This document shows positions 4,646 through 50,715 of a stretch of DNA of 64,000 bases, in pieces (position 1 is the first letter of the stretch; every line of letters starts with the position of its first letter). Below the pieces are notes generated by a model, which worked only from the letters and a program-made list of their open reading frames with translations, was not told where the DNA came from and searched no databases. Source of the stretch: Sphaerodactylus townsendi. Lineage: Eukaryota. Made by a program: the position numbers and the translations under genes. Location of the stretch: the NCBI RefSeq assembly GCF_021028975.2, contig NC_059430.1, positions 60,326,001 through 60,390,000 of the forward strand, written 5' to 3'.

Positions 4646-4686
4646 CCTCTGAAGATGCCAGCCACAGATGCAGGCGAAACATTAGG
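4646..4686 (+). ncRNA. Hammerhead ribozyme motif (type I, minimal; variant AUU site)
   Basis: CCU-CUGAAGA-U-GCC...GGC-GAAA-C-AUU-AGG: core intact, but the helix III ACGU palindrome is changed to ACAU. Confidence 0.7.
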
Positions 4687-5156
4687 AACAAGATCCACCA
4701 GACCATGGCCACACAGCCCGGAAAACCCACAACAACCAGTTGAACAGAAACTCTCCATGTACAGCTCCAAGGGTAGACTGCATATAGTCCTGCAGTCTCC
4801 TTTGGATCTGGTCTGATTGATGACATCAGGTGCAAGTCACACCTGCTGCATCTTGCCATGTAGCAAGATGTAGCAGCATCTTTCCATTCGCCATCCCAAA
4901 CTAGTGCTTGGGTCACTGAGGCTCTGCACCAGTTCTGGACTCAGATGGTCTCATGACAATTCTGTCTTCAAAGATCTTGCAGTTCAGATACCTATAGGTT
5001 ATGAAACAGCAAAGTCTGCAGCTCAGGAATATACCTTTATAACCTTGAAACCACTTCTGAAAGACAATTATTGGAGGGAATCTTTGCAGTGAGTGGAAAC
5101 CTCCTTCTATTGGATGAAAGCTTTGCTGTCATTGCAATGAAGTTGTTGGGTATAAT

Positions 5157-5292: not shown

Positions 5293-7675
5293 GGTATAAT
5301 CAATTGTGAAGTAGCAAAGAAAGAAACAAATAACTACATGTTCTATAGAGCTGAAGAAACATTTGAAATTCTTAATATGTTTGAGAGACAGGGAAATGTA
5401 AATGACCCTTTAAATCAATAAATATATGATTAATTAACTCTGGGATGATGCTGAATTGGCAAATATTCTACATTATTTCAATGTGTGCAATGCTTGTGCT
5501 TTAATTTTATGGTATGTTGGTAGTATCTGTTAATTAAAAATATATAAGGAAATGGTCAATGAAATCTAACCTAATCTGAGTTCACCAAGGGCAGAAATGT
5601 CAAGCTAATAATAATGTAATTATTTGAAAGCATGGTTGATTGCCTAAACAAAGAAAGTGTGATCAATCCTAGTCAATTTAATTTCGGCAAACCATTTGAT
5701 ATGTGCAGTGTAAGCAGTTTGTTTATATTGGGAGCTCATTGTTTAACATAGGTCCTATATGATTCTGACTTTTTTACACTGCTCTGAATAAACTGATAAG
5801 TAATTTTAATCTAATTCTTTAGTTGTAACAGGTTTGGGTCAAAAAGAAACTTGCCTACCCTTGATTTTTTTAAAGTTTGTTTACGCCCCTCCCCTTTTTT
5901 ATTCAGACACTGATGAGGATTTAATTTACTTTCATTCTTCTGTCTGAGTTTGTATTGCTATATTTCTTTTTATCATATGCTGCTGTTTCCTGCAGGAGGC
6001 ATGTTTGTTCTATAAAACTGTTACACTATTTCTATTATGTTAGCTGATCTGCCAAAACGTTTGCTTTTTTGTCATATTTCTTCACTAAATTGGTTCTACT
6101 CACACTTCTAGAGATGCAAAAAGAAAATAAACTTAGCAGAGTAACCTGCTTTCACCCTAATTTTATTATTTTTAACATTAAAAAGATGTAAAAGCCATCT
6201 TCTATAAGAGAAATATGAAAAAGTATTTTCAGAATTTAGACAGATAGAGAAAATGTTTTTTATTCAATTTATTTACCACATATATCTCACTTTTAACTGC
6301 AGCACATGTTTTTATGGACCAAAACCTCTTGCTGTGTAATATCATTCTCTTCAACTGTACCGTTCTTCTATTTGTGTATGCATAGGCATTCATGTACAGA
6401 GGGAATAATGTGTGGATGCTGAGCTGTGGGACATGAGAAAGTTTCTAGGAGCATTTTTGTTAGGTTTTGAAATGTGCAGAGACAAGAATATACTTGAACG
6501 ACTGCAGAAACTTCCAACAGAGCTCTGGAGATAGTGATGAGGGCACTTTAGGATGAGAGATATTTTTCCTCAATTCCAATCCAGATGTTGCAGCATTTCT
6601 TAATTGGTTAGGTATTTTTTGGCTTGGTAGGCCGTAAGTGCTGTCATGGTGATTATGTGAGACATGTAGAGCCCAGTATTTAGGTGAAATTATTGTGAGA
6701 ATGATTCCAGGTATTTGTGAGTAGGATTTGTCAATTATGCCCTGTTTATTCTTTAGCCACCTTGAGTGGATCTAGCAGTCAGCATACAAATTTTCTTAAC
6801 AGATAAAAATAAAGTTTCATCATGATCAAATCTGACTTTTTAAAATAAGGTTTAAGTTTTAATACACTAGAAAAATGCTCAGTTGACTTGCTATTAATAT
6901 ATTGTTAAACACTCCCCAAAGTTAAGAATGCAACTATGTTTATCAGAGAAGCAAAAGTGAATATACATGTACCTTGTGACCTTGGAATGGCATCCAAAAT
7001 GTGTGGTTGTACAGATGGGGTAATACTGGGGAGGGGGGGGGGAGGATATATATGTTGGAGGGTACACATTAAAAAATGAATATCTTGATTGTACACTGTC
7101 AAGGATACAGAATTTGGTCTGCATTGTGAAAGTAAGTTGATCTCTGTATTTGCAAACCAACCAATTATGACAACTTTACAGAAATTTATCTTTTGATATT
7201 ATATCAGTATTAGACGTACTGATTTCTGGTATGAATTTTGTAGATACACAATAGTGTTTACTTTCATTATTTGAAAGGAAGGTGATTCTGAATGAAAGCC
7301 AACACACCCTTGTTGGATGTAGCAATGTGCAAAGGAATTGAGATGAAGACCCAGCAAAGGGTAGGCAATTGGTCAGGGCTGTAAAGTTAGTGATCCCTCT
7401 GTCCTTTTCTGCCACCTCCTGTGTGTCCTTGAACTGATATTCTCAGGTCTAATATCCTCTTCTTCTTGAAAGTTAGTTGTAGAGACTCTTCCTAGCTAGC
7501 AAGATAGGAGCATGTTATCGTTCCCTTTTTTCTATCCTAACTGTAGTTCCTAATAACTATTTACCTTTTACCCTTTCAGTCAGTGTGTTGGCTGCTTCTC
7601 TGAGCAGTAAACTCCAATATTTTTGGTTATGGACACCAGGACTTAATTGACCTGGTTAAAAGAAAAAAGAAAACT

Positions 7676-7771
7676 GGGGTCTGTGTGGTTGCCGGGCTGT
7701 ATGGCCGTGTTCTAGCAGCATTCTCTCCTGACGTTTCGCCTGCATCTGTGGCTGGCGTCTTCATAATATCT
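7676..7771 (-). mobile_element. Penelope pLTR fragment with mutated hammerhead
   Basis: Reverse complement reads CAGAT-ATTA-TGAAGACGCCAGCCACAGATGCAGGCGAAACGTCAGGAGAGAATGC...; TSD-like GAAAACT at 7669-7675 and 7772-7778. Confidence 0.85.
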
Positions 7772-13109: not shown

Positions 13110-13460
13110 AACAGGAAGAATGGAGAGGTTTATACCCTGCCTTTCTCCTCAGTGGGGATCCAGGGATCTTACATCATTCTCCTCTCTATTTTGTCCTCAC
13201 ACAACAATCTTTTAAGTAGATTAGGTTAAGAATATATTACTGGTTCAAGGTCACCGAACAAGCTTCCATGACAGAGTGGGGATTTGAACCTGGGTCTGCC
13301 AGATCCTAGTCCAGGGGTCTGCAACCTGTGGCTCTCCAGATGTTCACGGACTACAATTCCCATGCTGGCAGGAGCTGATGGGAATTGTAGTCTGTGAATA
13401 TCTGGAGAGCCACAGGTTGCAGACCCCTGTCCTAGTCTAACACTGTAATCACTGCATCAC
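13110..13460 (-). mobile_element. Squam3-like tRNA SINE interrupted by a hAT MITE
   Basis: CAAGGTCACC..., B-box reverse complement GGGATTTGAACCTGGG, SINE body resumes after the MITE. Confidence 0.75.
13312..13429. mobile_element. URR1-like hAT MITE
   Basis: Near-palindromic, TIR CAGGGGTCTGCAACC; perfect 8-bp TSD TCCTAGTC (13304-13311, 13430-13437). Confidence 0.92.
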
Positions 13461-14050: not shown

Positions 14051-15620
14051 ACCTTATTCTAAAACAGACTTTGTGTAACATTTATAATACTTTCTCTCAT
14101 TACTTTGAATGCTTTGGATTACTGGTCATTGCCTATAAAGTCATAGTAGGTATAATAATGGTAGGTTTTGGGGTTTTTTGTTTTTGCTTCTCATGAGAAA
14201 TGAATAGAAATCTGCTTCTGTTTCTGGAATTTCTCTTCGGTTTGGTGATTTGATTTGAGAGTACAAAAAAAAGGTTTTCTGTTCTTCTGTCTCCAGTGAT
14301 CATCTGCCTTTTCATCTTAGCATAATGACTAGTTTGAGGAAGCCCCTATTCACAGAGAGTGCCTCTGGAGACAGCCAGCACATCTCTTGTTGAGGCAATG
14401 TAAGTGCTTGCTACAGTGCTTTATAATTTATGTCACTTCAGCTGAAAAAGGAGATTTCTAGCAAGTTTGGGGTGGAAGAAGGAAAACAAGCCCTTTGATA
14501 ATGTTAGAGTGCAATGCACCCTTAGCAGATGGCAGTGTCAAGTGTGATTTGTACATGATTATTATTGAGTTTTAGGTGGTGCTTTATATTCTTGGTTCTT
14601 GATGAGGAGCTTCATTTGTACACATCATCATTATCTCTTGTGACATATGCTTTAGTGATATTAATCTGTGCTTTACTCCTGCAGCAATAATCATGGGGTT
14701 GTACTCATTCTTTTTATTGTGTTGTCATGCTATCTATGGTTGCATTCATGATTTCAGATACGTTTACCATATAGGGGACAGGCTGTTGCTCAATGGTGAT
14801 TTATGCACAGCAGAAATAAAACATCTTTAGGACTTTTAAAGAAACATTTTGGGAAAGACGTTCGCACAGCACTCTCCCCCAAAATGTCTTCAAAATATTT
14901 TATTTTTCTCAACCCACGTTTCTCAAAAATGGCTAAACTAGCAGTCTTCCCCCCCCCCCCCCCCCGGGTTGAAAATATTTCCTGCCTGCTGAATGATCAA
15001 AAACAGGCAGGAAAGCCTTTATCTCTCCCTCCCAAACCTCTTACTTTCATTTTTGCTGTCCACGCCTGCCATTTTATGCTGCAGCAGAGATTATCTGAAG
15101 GTTCCCCACAGAAGATTCCACTACTTGCAGCTCATCCGTGCATGATTTCCCTGGGAAAAATAGATGAATAAATTTTGTTTTGCCCAGCTACCCTGTGCGC
15201 ATGTTGTTTTACCTTTTTTGTTGTTTTGAGGGGGATCTCTGAAACTACAATGTCACAATTAGAGAAGCTGCAATATGCACATATTTGTTGTGCCTTACAG
15301 TGTGCTTCACAGACATCCCACTCAAAACAAAAAAAGTTAAAAAAGACGTGCGCAGTATCCCTTGGCAAAGCAAACTTTATTCATCAAATTTTTACACAAA
15401 AATCACATGTGGATGAGCTGCAAGCAGAGGAGATCTCTGTGGAAAACCTTCGCCAAATGACAGAGGCACGGAGAATTTCTGCAGCAGCACACAAAATGGC
15501 AGGCGCAACTGTGAAACTGACAAGAGCTCTATTCAGCAGGCAGGAAAAAAAGATTCTGACAATGTTCAATCGTAGAATGGCCAGTTTTAAAACCTAATTG
15601 GCAAGAATGGAGGATCTTGT

Positions 15621-15803
15621 CGAAGGCTTTCACGGCCGGAATCACTTGGGTGCTGTGTGGTTTCCAGGCTGTATGGCCGTGTTCTAGCAGCATTCTCTCC
15701 TGACGTTTCGCCTCTGAAGATGCCAGCCACAGATGCAGGCGAAACGTCAGGAGAGAATGCTGCTAGAACACGGCCATACAGCCCGGAAACCACACAGCAC
15801 CCA
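15621..15803. mobile_element. Palindromic non-autonomous Penelope pLTR insertion
   Basis: Minus-strand pLTR piece with tail (15621-15713) joined to a plus-strand piece (15711-15803); 15-bp TSD AATGGAGGATCTTGT (15606-15620, 15804-15818). Confidence 0.9.
15711..15751 (+). ncRNA. Hammerhead ribozyme (type I, minimal, intact core)
   Basis: Stem I CCU/AGG, CUGAAGA 15714-15720, stem II GCC/GGC, GAAA 15741-15744, GUC triplet with predicted cut after 15748. Confidence 0.85.
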
Positions 15804-15993
15804 AATGGAGGATCTTGTTATCATTAACCCAGTCCTCCAATTTGCATTTCAAAAATTTGGCATAAACTTTTGAAGCAATTGGTCTATCATTCCATGGATC
15901 ATGCTTATCACCCTTCTTATGGATGGGAACTATTAAGCTGGATGTCCAACCGCACAGTACCACCAGTGTTATTAGTTTGTGTAGAGAGGCTTG

Positions 15994-16552
15994 TGTGAAG
16001 AGGTTGTTCCGGTTGCAGTCTCAGGTAGATTCACACTTGCCTGACAAGGACCTTTGATCTTCAGATAGGAAGCCAAAAAGCCTTTGAATAAATTATGCAA
16101 AGGAAGCTAGTGTAGATCAGAAGTTGATTTACAAGGGGGCCAGGAAACAGAGTTTACCTGAGAACCAAGGGGAGAGAACAATGGGAATTCTGATCCAGGC
16201 CAGGCAGGAAAAAGCAACTCCTGATCCCAGGTCTGAAACTGTCATGATGTGTGCCATGGGGGATGGGAGGCTGCTGGGATTTTGCTGTATTCTGCTGTGC
16301 TTTGCTGTTCTGTGCTGTTGCTTCCCACAGGTGTCTTATCTTCCTCGACCTGCCTATGTAACCTTGGCAGTGAGTTACAGAGAATGTTGTGCATAGAACT
16401 TCTCACGTTTGGGAGGGGGAGAGAACACTGATGTATATCATCTGCTGTTCTGAGAGTGTTCCTCAGAACATACTTTTGCCTTCTTTCTGCCTGTAGCAAT
16501 AAAACTCTTTGAACTGTCAATTATTTTGTTGTCTATGCAGAGGAGTTCTGAC
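15994..16552 (+). mobile_element. LTR-like segment
   Basis: TG...TGACA ends, AATAAA at ~16498 followed by a U5-like T-rich stretch; no clear TSD. Confidence 0.5.
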
Positions 16553-16589: not shown

Positions 16590-17540
16590 AAATTTATGTA
16601 TTAGAACATTTCCTATTTTTGTTTTTCAATAAAATCTTTGGAAAACTCAGTGATTTTTGAGTATCTGGAAAAAAGAACCCAGGATTTATAAGGCAGGCGT
16701 GGATCCCCACATCCCTAGTCCTGTGATATTATGGCAGCGATTAAAGGTTCCAGTACTCTGGTTTGAGCATGTTCCTGGTTCTGTGGCGGTCAGTGATGGC
16801 AGAGCATTCTGACAAAAGCTGGCAGGGAGAAAGGCAGGCTGGTGCATTTGCCGAGGTGGATGTCACTCTGCCTGAGACTTCTCTGGACTGCGGAGTTCAG
16901 GACTGGAGGTCGGTGATCGTTGGGTTTGATGGTGCTTCAGGTGCTGAGATGGAATACCGGGACAGCGTGAGTGACTTTGCAGGTTTCCAAAGCCAAGTCA
17001 GTCCTGAGACCCAGAAAGGCAGCTTAAACAAACCGCAACTATAACTCACAGGAAGGATTTTGCCCTTAATGTGGAAGGTCCAGCAGCTGTACCTGTTCCA
17101 AATGGACCAGCCTGTTTCTTCTGCAAAGTGACAGGCCACCTTAAAAAAAATTGTCCCAAGCAAGGGGAGAAGCTTGCAGCTGGAATGAGATTTTACTCGG
17201 GAGCCAGTGCTGTGCATCTTGCAAGGATGGAAGAGAAGGGCAATCGCCAGTATGAACTGCTTCAGGAGAGGGTGGCTTCCAATGAGGCAACTTTATGCGC
17301 TGTGACCCAGGGAAAGCGGCAGCACAGAAACATCTTGGGTCAGCTCTCTGACAGTGATTCACCAGCAAAGAATTGTCAGCATGAAATACATTGCACCAAT
17401 GAAGTAGAAGGTCTGGGTGGAAAGCCTGCAAAAAGAACCTGTGATACTTGGACAGACTCTTCAATTGGATGGTACTTTGGACTCTGGGGCAGACATTTCA
17501 TCGATCAGGGCTGATTTATTGCCAAAAGTGCCTCACAAGT
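16590..17540 (+). mobile_element. Ty3/Gypsy LTR element 5' relic (LTR end, PBS, gag zinc knuckle, protease)
   Basis: AATAAA ~16628, PBS-like TGGCAGCG ~16732, CFFCKVTGHLKKNC (CCHC) in ORF 17071, and GTLDSGADISSIRADLLP from 17471 in another frame. Confidence 0.8.
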
Positions 17541-25959: not shown

Positions 25960-26515
25960 TTTATAAAATGGAGGTCAGGAAAGCTCTCATACTTTGCTTT
26001 CTTCAAACTCTGCAAAACTGAACTATTCAAGAGAGCTTTTCTGTGCAGGTAATAGAGTAGCACTGTATAAAATAGTTCACAAATTAATTTTGTTATATTA
26101 CTGATCCTATAGTCTATACCAGGGGTAGGGAACCTGCGGCTCTCCAGATGTTCAGGAACTACAATTCCCATCAGCCTCTGTCAGCATGGCCAATTGGCCA
26201 TGCTGGTAGGGGCTGATGGGAATTGTAGTTCCTGAACATCTGGAGAGCCGCAGGTTCCCTACCCCTGGTCTATACTGTGAAGTATAACTTATTTTAATAG
26301 GATCCTACTATGTAATTTCTGTACAACTCAATATGTCATGTTAATATGCATTAATATGCATTGCTACTCAGTTCTTTCTGGTGATTCCAGACTTCTACAG
26401 TCCAATGCATTGGTTAGTTAATCTCCCATTTTGTTGCTTGTACTGACTTACTATGTGTAATCTACCTTCAGTCCCTATGAGAAAGGTAGACTATAAATAA
26501 TGTAAATAAATAAAA
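25960..26515 (+). mobile_element. L2-type LINE 3' end, interrupted by a MITE
   Basis: Similar to 47030-47437 (GCAAAACTGAACTATTCAAG..., TGTGTAATC..CCTT..GAGAAAGGTAGA, TAAA tail). Confidence 0.7.
26120..26267. mobile_element. URR1-like hAT MITE, near-perfect palindrome
   Basis: TIR CAGGGGTAGGGAACC; perfect 8-bp TSD GTCTATAC (26112-26119, 26268-26275). Confidence 0.95.
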
Positions 26516-35420: not shown

Positions 35421-36292
35421 TCTCTCTGCAAGCTTGTAGGGAACTAATATTATTTGTGATTTTTGCACAAGCAAGCACTCTGAATCAGGGCTATTTCTGA
35501 ATAGTAAGCAAAATGTTCAGTATTAGACTTCAGTCTCCAGCCCAAAAATGTCAATTCCCATCCAGCTTTTGAATTCAACAAGGAAGAACAGTTTTTCTTT
35601 CCTCCAAATATATAAAGCATCTTACTTTGTCACTGGAGAATTAGAACTATTTGTTACCCAGCTTAACAGTATAAGAACTTATTTTTAAATAGCAATGGGG
35701 AACTACTCAGCTTGGCAGTGCGAGAGGCAGGCTGGGTGGGATCTTTTAGACAACTACACCAGAAAAATGGCTTGAAACGTTCTACAGAAAATTCACAAGA
35801 GGCCAAATTGCAGTTTAAATATTTTTATATAAGTTTTGATTTCCAGAAACAATCATACAGTGAGACGTTAAGGCTCATACACATAGTTCCTAAGTATATA
35901 AACGGGGGGTTTGGATGATAGAGTAGGAGGGGAAGCAGGGGACTTATACGTTACCTAAATTCAGCTGAAGAAGACAAGGATCTCTATGCCAGCTTGGGGA
36001 CCCAAGCGAAGGATGATATATCGTGTCTCCAACCAACTATATCAAGAGAGGTTTAGCCAGTAAAGAGCTCTGAGGCTATGGTGCACAATACTTTTATACC
36101 TTTTTGCGCAGGTAGGGGTGGGCTCAGGTAAGTTTCAGTTTCATTTTCCTGCATCTGTTGGGATTTCCCATGCTGGGTTTGCTGGCTTGAGCTAATTAGT
36201 AGCTCTGTATATTGTCGAAGGCTTTCACAGCTGGAATCAGTGGGGTGCTGTGTGGTTTCTGGGCTGTATGGCCGTGTTCTAGCAGCATTCTC

Positions 36293-36335
36293 TCCTGATG
36301 TTTCGCCTGTATCTGTGGCTGTCATCTTCAGAGGA
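36293..36335 (-). ncRNA. Hammerhead ribozyme motif, degenerate
   Basis: UCCU-CUGAAGA-U-GAC...GGC-GAAA-C-AUC-AGGA: stem II mismatch and lost ACGU palindrome. Confidence 0.6.
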
Positions 36336-36349
36336 TCTGAATCTTCAGA

Positions 36350-36392
36350 TCCTCTGAAGATGCCAGCCACAGATGCAGGCGAAACGTCAGGA
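36350..36392 (+). ncRNA. Hammerhead ribozyme (type I, minimal, intact core)
   Basis: Stem I UCCU/AGGA, CUGAAGA 36354-36360, stem II GCC(A)GC/GC(A)GGC, GAAA 36381-36384, GUC with predicted cut after 36388. Confidence 0.87.
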
Positions 36393-39319
36393 GAGAATGC
36401 TGCTAGACATGGCCATATAGCCCGGAAACCACACAGAACCCCAGGAGCTCTATAGTTTCTAAGTGTTGGGATAATAGAGTCAATTGTTCCTTGATTACAT
36501 CGGGAGCTCTGAAAGGCTTTATGCAGAGTAAGTCCTTGGAGTTCCTGCTCAGGTATTCAATTTGGGTGAGGCTTTGATTGGATCAGGAAGGGATTGATTT
36601 TTAGGGAGATCGTATCTAGAGGTAGAGGAAATGCAAGGAAGGAGCAATTGTTGATGAAATGGTTTCTCAAAGGTAGATTAAATATAACGTCTAGTATCAG
36701 GGAGTCTTCCAGGATTCATTGGATCAGAACAGCTTAGCGGGGTGTGGTAATCAAGATATGTCCATGGTCCATGAGGCTTCCAGCTCCTATTGCCTGGAGT
36801 AACTCATTCACTGATTTAATCTTGCAAACAGACCTTTTGCCTTAGGCCTGCTTTTAGGGTGGACACTCTGCTACCTACACACACAAATGTGAGAATTGGC
36901 TTTTACCAATACAGCTGTACAGAAAAATGATATGGAATCTATATTTCAATAGAGCGGGGTATGAAGGGCAGGGCTAACATAGCTTAGAGCTGAATCTTGT
37001 TCAATAATGTTCCTTCTTAGGACCTCATCTTCTGTTAGAGGTAGTAGGAAACAGTTAAGTCAATTTTTGTGTAGAAAGGAGCTGTTGAATTCTTTAATAC
37101 AGAGGTGGAACACGAACTTTTTAGATCTAGACGTGCAGCCAGATCTCTATAAGAGTTGATAGGCTTCAAGACACTGGTGGGGGCATTTCTTCCACATCAG
37201 CTTTCATAACTTGCTGCAGGTGTGCATTGTTTTTATATTTGAAAATAACATCATGAGAGTTATATTGTTTCCTGAGTATCACTAACATATTGACATCTCA
37301 CCAGGATATCATCCTGCTGATCTAGAAGGAAGTGTTTTTAAGGAAATCCAATACTGGATGTTGCAAAGTGTCAAAGATTTATGGTACACCTTAACTTACC
37401 ACATTGCTAACTACATAACCTACCACAAAAGCTAAATTATATGGATTAAAGTATCATCGATATGCAGATCATACTAATCTGTTTATGTTTTCAACAGAAT
37501 CTGATGAGTTGTTTGTTTATTACATGTTTTGACTGCCTCCTCTTCAAAGTGTTCAGGGTGGTATGCATGGTTCTCCATGACTCATGACCAGAGTGCAATT
37601 TTTATGCCCTGTTTTTAACTTGTGGTTTAGGGAGCATTCAAGAATAATGTTGCACATATTAAAGGTTAAGAATAACAATTAACAGCATAAGAGACAGTAG
37701 GGAAAGGGAAAATATGAAAGAATGGGGGAGGCAAGAAAAACAAAAGCAAATAATTATGTTTAATTTAAGGTTAAAATTGTCAGTTGCAGCTGGAAACCCA
37801 TAGGAGCTACTCGCAGGGGTGGGTGGGTAGGAACAGTTGTACTAGCATCATGGCAACATGCAAAATCACTACCAGTACAAAACCATCATCATTGTGTTAG
37901 GGTAGTGCTCTAGAATTTGCCCAAATTCTGTGGTTAAACATGGCATTTTAAACAAATCCTTGATCATTCCTTCTGGACATTGGGAGCTGAGCTCCAGTTT
38001 CTCTCCTGCACAGTCACATGTGAAGCTGCAGTGGGGAACCGGGGCTATAATGGGAGTCATGCTCCCCATATTTTAGTCCAGGAATACTCTTTGTTAAATG
38101 GTTCTGCAAACTTTAAATGTTGTCTTCGACTGCTCTTAGTTAGATTTGTGTCCGTTACATGTCAAAACCTAAACCGTCTTACTGAACAAGTACATCCAAT
38201 TTGTGCTGATAAAAATGTAATCAGAAAAGAAATATATGAAAGAGAAATATATAATATATAAAAGAATATAATATTCTTAAATGTCAAGATCAATATTTTG
38301 TTCTACAGAATGACTGCATTTGAATTTCATCCAACAGTTTGTCACTTAAGATGAATAGTTAAAATTAACATGTATGATTATAACTACCTAACATTAAAAT
38401 TAAATGCTTATTTCTCAGACAAGCTCATGAAGTCCACTATGAGAAAAGAGCCAGCTAATTTTACATTTTTATACTTCCCTCGGTTATGATTGATGTTACG
38501 ATTCTTGTATATAATAGGTTAACGTAGTTTGCTGTTTTCTCCCAGCATGGAGCTTTCATTGTTGGTGTTTTCTCTTTGGGAAACCAGCACTAACATTTTG
38601 GCGTAGTCACTCTGTGACTAGCATTTTACTGAGAACAAATAGGAATTTGGAGAGTTTGGAATTTGAACATCTATAAGAAAATGGACATATAAGCAGTTTG
38701 TAGACATATAATCAGTTGTTTGAGGGATTGAGCATTGAATAGATTAATAATGCTGTCCTGCAAAGATGAATCTCTCTTGAGAATGAGATTTTAATTAAAA
38801 CCTACACAGATATGTGTCGTAGTTCCATTGGTTTGAGCATGCTGCCCTCTGCCTACAAAGTATAAAAACATTCTCTGCTGTTCATATTTTTCCTACAAAC
38901 CTTGAGATGAACAAAGGACCTCAGTATTTTTCTGTCATCATAAAAACCTCTGTTTTTGAATTCTGTGTGAGAGCATCCTTCAACTGGAAATGAAATACTA
39001 CCAAATTCAAAAGCTGCATTGCAGTGTTGTGGATTATTGTCTTAATTGAGGACATGCCTTCATTGAGGACATGTTCTTGTCCTGCCTTGTGGCTGTGTGT
39101 AACCTGTTGTTATTAGCATTGTAATGGCAGCCATAATCTGATAAATAATTATTTCAATAAAGGAAGATGAAACAGTTGGGCAAATACAGATGCAAGGAGA
39201 TATTGCTTCAAAGGTCGAGGCTGCAACAGCCAAAAGAAGTTAGAGATGCGAAGGCATTAAAAGGAAACTTTGTGTTTTGTTGAGCTTTCATTTGACTTAA
39301 ATCACTAGGAATTTCCAAA

Positions 39320-50329: not shown

Positions 50330-50715
50330 GTAGATCCATCCACAGATGTATACCATATTTTAAAAAATGGATCGTTATTGACTTATGGGGTGACGCCGCT
50401 TCTGAAACTCGCTCGGTTGGAATACGCCGGTTGCCACCTGTTGCTGAGCGAACAGCAGCAGGTGGAAGCCGGCATATTCCCGTGGCGCTCCCAAACAGCT
50501 GCCTATCTTTTCCCTGCCTTTCGTCGCTCCGAGGAGGGAAGGGGACATGCCTCCTTGCCTTTGTCACTTCAGCTGTCGCTCTGGCCTGGGGGCATGTCCC
50601 CTTCCCTACTCGGAGTGACGAAAGGCAGGGAAAAGGTAGGCAGCTGTTTGGGGGGCTGTGCGGCTGTGCAGAGCGTGCTGCACTTTGCCAGTACTGCACC
50701 TTGCCATGATGCACT
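50330..50715. mobile_element. GC-rich MITE fragment with long internal palindrome
   Basis: Arms 50490-50553 / 50589-50652; shares AAGGGGACATGCC with 60650-61080. Confidence 0.6.

Follow-up and report, generated by a model that had tools for sequence, protein, structure and literature searches.

A short head-to-head Poseidon insertion in a gecko genome and break points that suggest twin priming

The sequence analysed, called the window throughout, is the whole stretch of 64,000 nucleotides from Sphaerodactylus townsendi. At 15606..15818 it carries a palindromic insertion, bounded by a target-site duplication (TSD) and set in a LINE reverse transcriptase (RT) fragment. It derives from a Penelope/Poseidon retrotransposon, of which it is a young and inert fragment, and represents an ordinary copy of a known transposon family whose architecture is also already known. 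Element coordinates are numbered relative to the ATG of the open reading frame (ORF) of the Poseidon Penelope-like element (PLE), with a natural copy, L154, as the reference. The features of the insertion and its surroundings, followed by the other copies in the window, are:

15555..15620, minus strand, left part of the host LINE RT fragment, 92% to its paralogue L072
15606..15620, plus strand, left TSD, the last four bases of which (15617-15620) also match the end of the element tail
15617..15713, minus strand, tailed arm, Poseidon PLE +114 down to +18, 96/97 identical to L154 with one CpG change
15617..15645, minus strand, PLE tail, +86..+114, between the two RT start sites reported for PAc (PMC11167929)
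15711..15713, no strand, CCT microhomology joining the arms and part of both
15711..15751, plus strand, minimal type I hammerhead (motif type as described in PMC4209133), predicted to be sequestered in a long stem
15711..15804, plus strand, tail-less arm, -9..+85, 94/94 identical to L154
15804..15818, plus strand, right TSD, the first base of which also matches element +85
15819..15994, minus strand, right part of the host LINE RT fragment, 83% to L072 with 17 nt of gaps
4646..4738, plus strand, lone arm of a diverged subfamily starting near -9
7673..7763, minus strand, tail-less arm of the same family, without a partner and with its end near -5
36201..36454, no strand, second palindromic copy, arms to about -15 separated by a short snap-back-like insert, TSD of 9 bp including one mismatch

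Translated on the minus strand, the flanks give a non-LTR RT, with EDWVND in the right flank and KILHSCQLGFK in the left. In L072 the left flank aligns up to base 1513 and the right flank from base 1514; the alignment is contiguous and the paralogue therefore has a single copy of the duplicated stretch, a paralogous empty site. A 132-codon stretch of L072 across this point is open and matches RVT_1. The insertion thus interrupts a LINE RT frame; as L072 runs through the site without a break, the LINE fragment is the older of the two, in agreement with an earlier note made from the sequence of the window. The host fragment has already decayed, with stops as well as the gaps relative to L072. 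Contigs from four runs were compared with 15100-16400, and among those listed none bridges the insertion site. A search with the left flank assigned 15400-15554 to a different repeat, and the fragment adjoins an older repeat at 15097-15554 with 126-nt inverted arms (73%) and many copies at 84-90%. A Pfam scan of 33 of the 46 listed window frames of at least 110 codons returned one zinc knuckle, one sub-threshold match and no host gene. The CCHC zinc knuckle (Pfam E 3e-4) lies in a frame at 17008-17511 that is probably another retroelement fragment.

The duplicated sequence, AATGGAGGATCTTGT, is exact at 15606-15620 and 15804-15818 and has no third copy on either strand of the window. About 10 bp of it can be counted as duplicated without ambiguity, since the element matches its final four bases and its first base too. 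The inverted arms, 15643-15713 and 15737-15807, are 71 nt long, 97% complementary and 23 nt apart, and the intervening loop (15714-15736) contains CTGAAGA, the 5′ strand of stem II, its loop and part of stem II. Both arms together are identical to L154 at 190/191 bases and cover only the first 38 codons of the ORF. The earlier note had described a 15-bp TSD, a tailed minus-strand arm and a tail-less plus-strand arm, an inversion point inside the ribozyme at the CCT and a long stem with a 23-nt loop. The analysis bears out this arrangement in each part, the TSD with the shorter unambiguous core just given. The copy at 36.2 kb was said to have the same plan, and does.

The plus-strand hammerhead core, CUGAAGA...GAAACGUC, is intact at 15714-15748, as had been claimed, with the ORF ATG at 15720 and the predicted cut after 15748, that is after element +29. 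Stem I is reduced to three pairs. Is such a ribozyme likely to be active? An Rfam scan of the whole window gave no hammerhead match at the gathering score. Hammerheads of its minimal PLE type are reported to need a dimer or protein, so the intact core is no proof of activity; the second copy is antisense and hence no dimer in cis is possible. In structure prediction the plus transcript folds at -153.6 kcal/mol and a forced hammerhead fold at -124.5 kcal/mol, a penalty of about 29 kcal/mol, with stem I pair probabilities of about 1e-20. The ribozyme of the window copy is predicted to be unable to fold and silent, in keeping with the earlier suggestion that a plus transcript would bury it. The hairpin is probably a by-product.

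The long arms of some copies extend upstream into an endonuclease-like frame, GVY...YIG, and a search with this frame found L154. This natural copy has an 819-codon ORF starting at the ribozyme ATG and matching RVT_1 (E 1e-12). Pfam gave no GIY-YIG match in the L154 ORF; a GVY...YIG motif is visible by eye near residues 700-715 of the protein, and two of its listed relatives carry PF01541. A PDB search returned weak RT matches only. Over the whole length the L154 protein shares 690/816 identities (85%) with a protein of Anolis carolinensis. The best database relatives are Anolis proteins at 85-88%, the next being at most 65%. We take the A. carolinensis protein to be PAc, the Poseidon of that species, because its N-terminus agrees in 29/30 codons, counted by hand, with the RNA printed in Fig. 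S1B of PMC11167929. The 85% identity suggests that the gecko element belongs to the Penelope/Poseidon clade. The pLTR overlaps the ORF start and occurs in both direct and inverted orientations in the family; its hammerhead core is present by sequence, in the layout described for PAc. The one-sided tail, for which 30-40 bp is expected in the clade, ends near +85 and +118 in the sample described below and is 29 nt in the window copy. The account in the earlier note had the architecture right but lacked the family name; inverted arms, one-sided tails and TSDs are published features of that family (PMC3846280, PMC8557442). We note that the gap between Anolis (85-88%) and all others (65% or less) for the ORF at L154:1799-4258 makes horizontal transfer conceivable if the host is distant from anoles.

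Short head-to-head insertions of this kind number in the thousands, the window copy among them. Exact matches to a 27-nt tail pattern occur 6,895 times across the 1.81-Gb genome, with a further 1,027 and 919 for two variants that differ by one letter. The sample consisted of the first 100 of the 6,895 matches and 70 of the first 100 for each variant, all on contig C1 and aligned to natural copies as references; being anchored on a near-intact tail, it is one of young copies. The 243 anchors were reduced to 241 unique ones and, after removal of the second anchor of two double-tailed elements, to 239. The first 30 look-alike loci are biased toward the query junction and were excluded from every count. 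Among the 241 anchors, 152 have an inverted tail-less arm, six a second tailed arm, 51 another second alignment that fits neither class and 32 none, so the inverted tail-less arm is present in 152/239 tail-anchored elements. An exact TSD of at least 9 flanks 114/152 palindromes (median 12) as against 0/400 mismatched control pairs, and in 15/152 it is at least 15. The outer ends cluster near +118 and +85, which is the tail region reported for PAc, and microhomology between the TSD ends and the element averages 1.9 and 1.2 nt compared with 0.5 in letter shuffles.

Three further palindromes in the window, at 13.3, 26.1 and 50.5 kb, have no match to the Poseidon element. Those at 13306-13435 and 26111-26276 are MITE-like and belong to another family. 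The 26.1-kb palindrome is flanked by an 8-bp repeat, the TSD length of hAT elements. The third, at 50490-50652, is an unrelated G+C-rich hairpin with 70-nt arms and a 23-nt loop, without a clear TSD.

How might such insertions arise? The reading we favour, with a probability of roughly 0.7, is that the insertion was made by twin priming on a single sense RNA, with run-off at the 5′ end of that RNA and subsequent end joining. Nicks staggered by about 10-12 bp, to judge from the TSDs, would leave two 3′ overhangs. One would prime near +118 and the other near +85, aided by 1-4 matching bases; the end positions and the microhomology of this step are seen in the copies. Both cDNAs would then copy the same 5′-terminal stretch, usually stopping at -12/-13, the predicted transcription start. 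A minority would stop at +30, where the ribozyme is predicted to cut, or immediately 3′ of it; the positions are those observed, and RNAs ending there would explain them. From the RNA 5′ end the RT may also jump to a position further downstream on the RNA and resume copying, as the tandem copies suggest. Finally, the cDNA 3′ ends would be joined; junctions showing microhomology, short snap-back or templated filler are all found. In the window copy the tailed cDNA would have stopped at, or been trimmed to, +18 and been joined at the CCT. Template jumping is a known property of RTs, and templated inserts of the polymerase-theta type are likewise familiar. PAc cleaves and extends both strands in vitro, has two start sites and is a predicted dimer (PMC11167929).

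The tailed arms end at -17..-7 in 112/239 elements, with 85 shorter, 42 longer and the mode at -12. The same interval holds the ends of 72/142 tail-less arms and 20/32 lone arms. The ending rate per nucleotide is 0.102 at -17..-7, compared with 0.005 at +80..-6 and 0.008 at -18..-117. Break points tabulated over the 239-element sample are thus not random relative to the ribozyme, as had been anticipated. The wider idea, that integration repeatedly makes inversions near the ribozyme, also stands, but the hot spot is the 5′ edge of the ribozyme, not its interior or cut site. Since partnerless copies show the hot spot equally, the ribozyme is probably its neighbour rather than its cause.

Direct tandems were sampled among the matches that continue into the ORF, of which the first 30 of 160 were used. 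They gave 22 junctions at 19 loci; at each junction a unit extending to between +150 and +1200 gives way to a fresh one, whose start lies at -17..-10 in 13/22 cases and at -12/-13 in 11 of these. A TATATA motif is present at -41..-48 in 51/58 copies with upstream sequence, its spacing differing by 7 nt between subfamilies, and -15..-9 fits the Inr consensus. The full ORF of L154 begins at -10 beside an inverted tail-less arm. From these sequence features -12 is predicted to be the RNA 5′ end, the transcription start of the element.

It is unlikely that twin priming occurred with -12 marking something else, namely a splice acceptor, an RT pause at the hairpin -16..-4 or a GATC favoured by end joining. 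A pyrimidine run and CAG precede -11, so that the site does resemble a splice acceptor, and the D. virilis intron is reported to end at helix I, the place equivalent to -12 (PMC4209133). The D. virilis Penelope promoter has been described as TATA-less and internal, and 14 of the gecko junctions are perfect GATC-centred palindromes. A shared spliced first exon was not supported, however, as 0/119 post-junction sequences match an upstream exon within about 1.9 kb of one natural copy, and neither was splicing or back-splicing, as no GT donor follows the upstream unit in the 10 tabulated direct junctions landing at -17..-10. Partnerless lone arms, moreover, end around -12, and the copy with the full ORF begins there.

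Twin priming places two primers on one RNA, and the relation between the arms bears on both parts of this statement. The tail-less arm extends more than 10 nt further 5′ in 40/142 elements and the tailed arm in 26; in 76 the two end within 10 nt of each other. An alternative is that a single cDNA or antisense template folded back and primed itself, the second end being set by endonuclease (EN) resolution. Self-priming has been proposed for rotifer PLEs (PMC3846280) and the tail ascribed to EN-mediated resolution (PMC8557442). The 76 closely matched pairs would suit this model, as would the 13 of 119 ends at -16..-10 that are snap-back-like, continuing as fold-back sequence. We nevertheless consider it improbable. 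A fold-back arm cannot exceed its template, yet the tail-less arm does so in the 40 elements and in the window copy. In the latter each arm holds sequence that the other lacks, so fold-back alone cannot produce it. Some elements pair a long arm with a hot-spot arm (-8/-293, -17/-323, -670/-19), the ends of lone arms and direct tandems coincide with the hot spot, and a second peak falls at the cut site of the sense strand. With respect to a single RNA, an A/C variant at +84 is concordant between arms in 80/85 elements and discordant in 5/85, and six further subfamily variants are mostly common to both arms. Pieces of one insertion often share a 5′ end off the hot spot (44/44/45, 53/53/47, 30/30). 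We caution that the concordance of the arms could alternatively reflect subfamilies active at different times.

Could the junction of the window copy be secondary? The original insertion may have been a longer palindrome from which cruciform processing subsequently removed 31 nt lying between two CCT. The instability of long DNA palindromes speaks for such an event, and direct CCT repeats would flank the missing piece in a GATC-centred palindrome. We judge this, too, to be improbable. The window copy is nearly unmutated relative to L154, and divergence is no higher at shortened junctions than at those that extend to -7, with no age trend in junction class against divergence (p 0.77). The 142 junctions comprise 66 with overlap, 6 blunt and 70 with inserted bases, which a clean deletion does not add.

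A minor peak lies at the predicted cut site. Of 38 tail-less arms ending in +1..+60, six start exactly at +30 (P 4e-5 at a single position and about 2e-3 for all 60), and all six have partners that end no earlier than +29. In 19/142 elements neither arm extends 5′ of +29 (Fisher 6e-9), and the same holds for 11/11 near-symmetric short pairs under a 6-nt tolerance chosen after seeing the data. Genome-wide, arm-start patterns have 191 matches for +30, 73 for +33 and 49 for +27. AGAG-type microhomology joins account for 18 of the first 100 rows for +30 and 18 of the 73 for +33, a difference in background between the patterns, so the excess at +30 is only about 3-fold. Both arms are at +30 in six elements of those first 100 rows and in none of the 73 or 49 control rows. 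For 30 fetched +30 loci, four of them already in the main sample, the partner ends at +29 or later in 13/25 partnered elements. The cut site explains only a minor class of break points, and the map hints at ribozyme cleavage in vivo; in the portion compared, Frangieh et al. (PMC11167929) report no RNA-seq reads ending at the PAc cut site. We suggest tentatively, at a little under even odds, that the mini-palindromes are paired strong-stop cDNAs of routine twin priming which record the RNA 5′ end, mostly a capped start at about -12 and in around a tenth the hammerhead cut at +30.

The strong form of the idea in the earlier note, that cleavage or folding of the ribozyme is the main cause of the inversions, is very improbable. 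The peak at +30 is real, and the 19 elements with both arms at or beyond +29 are in its favour, but just 5/239 tailed arms end at +28..+32 against 112 in the main interval, which largely refutes it for the majority class. A structural stall is expected 3′ of the fold, not beyond its 5′ edge, and PAc ribozyme mutants are reported to insert normally in vitro (PMC11167929). The notion of a non-autonomous unit (SINE-like, MITE-like or a retrozyme) that spread in its entirety from a few masters is hardly credible: nine copies genome-wide do share the exact junction of the window copy, inside stem II, but they span both +84 subfamilies, have differing TSDs and in two cases carry the tailed arm in sense, so they reflect an independent but rare recurrence, and the junctions of the sample are very diverse. 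Assignment as a non-LTR retrozyme was rejected as the arms are head-to-head and not head-to-tail tandem sense units, short direct tandems occurring elsewhere in the family (L372). A MITE was rejected on account of asymmetric ends, variable junctions and the lack of a fixed unit.

Several known systems invite comparison. In PAc the ORF likewise starts at stem II of the ribozyme with the same cut offset, the tail terminates around +111..+118 and the RT starts at two sites (PMC11167929). The portion of that paper compared derives no inverted insertions, gives no map of 5′ ends or TSDs and detects no trace of ribozyme cleavage in vivo. According to Frangieh et al. (PMC11167929) PAc primes without homology, whereas the gecko copies show 1-2 nt of excess microhomology. 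Canonical PLEs (PMC3846280; PMC8557442) are described with the same head-to-head pLTRs, one-sided tail, TSDs of 8-10 bp and palindromes where the inverted units meet, the pLTR likewise carrying TATATATA together with an Inr-like motif. In contrast, most gecko copies are two arms only, without the ORF body. The published explanations for PLEs are self-priming on an antisense template or EN resolution, whereas the gecko break points favour twin priming on sense RNA. In the twin or dual priming of L1 (PMC2837659) the second nicked strand also primes a second cDNA, and the result is an inversion that is joined through microhomology and lies between TSDs. The priming sites of L1 are the poly(A) tail and a variable internal position (PMC2837659), so the arms of L1 are mostly different segments; the gecko element differs in using two fixed sites about 33 nt apart, which gives overlapping arms, and in having the inverted structure as the majority outcome. 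The minimal PLE hammerheads and non-LTR retrozymes (PMC4209133; bioRxiv 10.64898/2026.07.22.740005) share the type I motif, in which A9 is followed by an additional base, and a palindromic, loop-less helix III.

The value of the finding lies in the population of copies, the break-point map bearing on an open question of PLE mechanism. The origin of tandem and inverted PLE pLTRs was called still undefined in 2021 (PMC8557442), and the in vitro study of PAc in 2024 left later steps unvalidated (PMC11167929). If the proposed mechanism is correct, run-off and template jumping would explain inverted and tandem pLTRs by one route, and the mini-palindromes would be a genomic record of PLE hammerhead cleavage in vivo. 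The map gives concrete predictions for the existing PAc assay. Annotators should be aware that such hairpins can pass for MITEs or structured RNAs. In the literature searched (titles, the starts of abstracts and passages) we found no application of twin priming or of a 5′-end map to PLEs; Arkhipova 2006, Evgen'ev and Arkhipova 2005, Pyatkov 2004, the Xena paper and Repbase/Dfam may hold part of it.

Some individual loci deserve mention. At L211:1625-2015 an arm ends at -13 and is followed by a run of 12 T, about 13 nt further on by the complement of AATAAA, and by about 386 nt of unrelated sequence. This resembles a jump onto the poly(A) end of another RNA, and three more arms continue as T runs. 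L372:1378-2023 holds three direct units of about 182 nt (-12..+170) and a tail-less unit, with non-identical junctions. The unit end at +170 is near the 172 nt reported as the minimal PAc RNA (PMC11167929). Many direct jumps land at +150..+240. At L159:1285-9024 a palindromic element and its flanks occur twice, inverted and about 6 kb apart, either a large inverted duplication or a feature of the assembly. Finally, 10/241 elements (among them L066, L083, L129, L191 and L204) repeat the 5′-terminal 9-30 nt at the junction, as if the RNA end had been copied again, which recalls the reiterative synthesis of the related telomerase.
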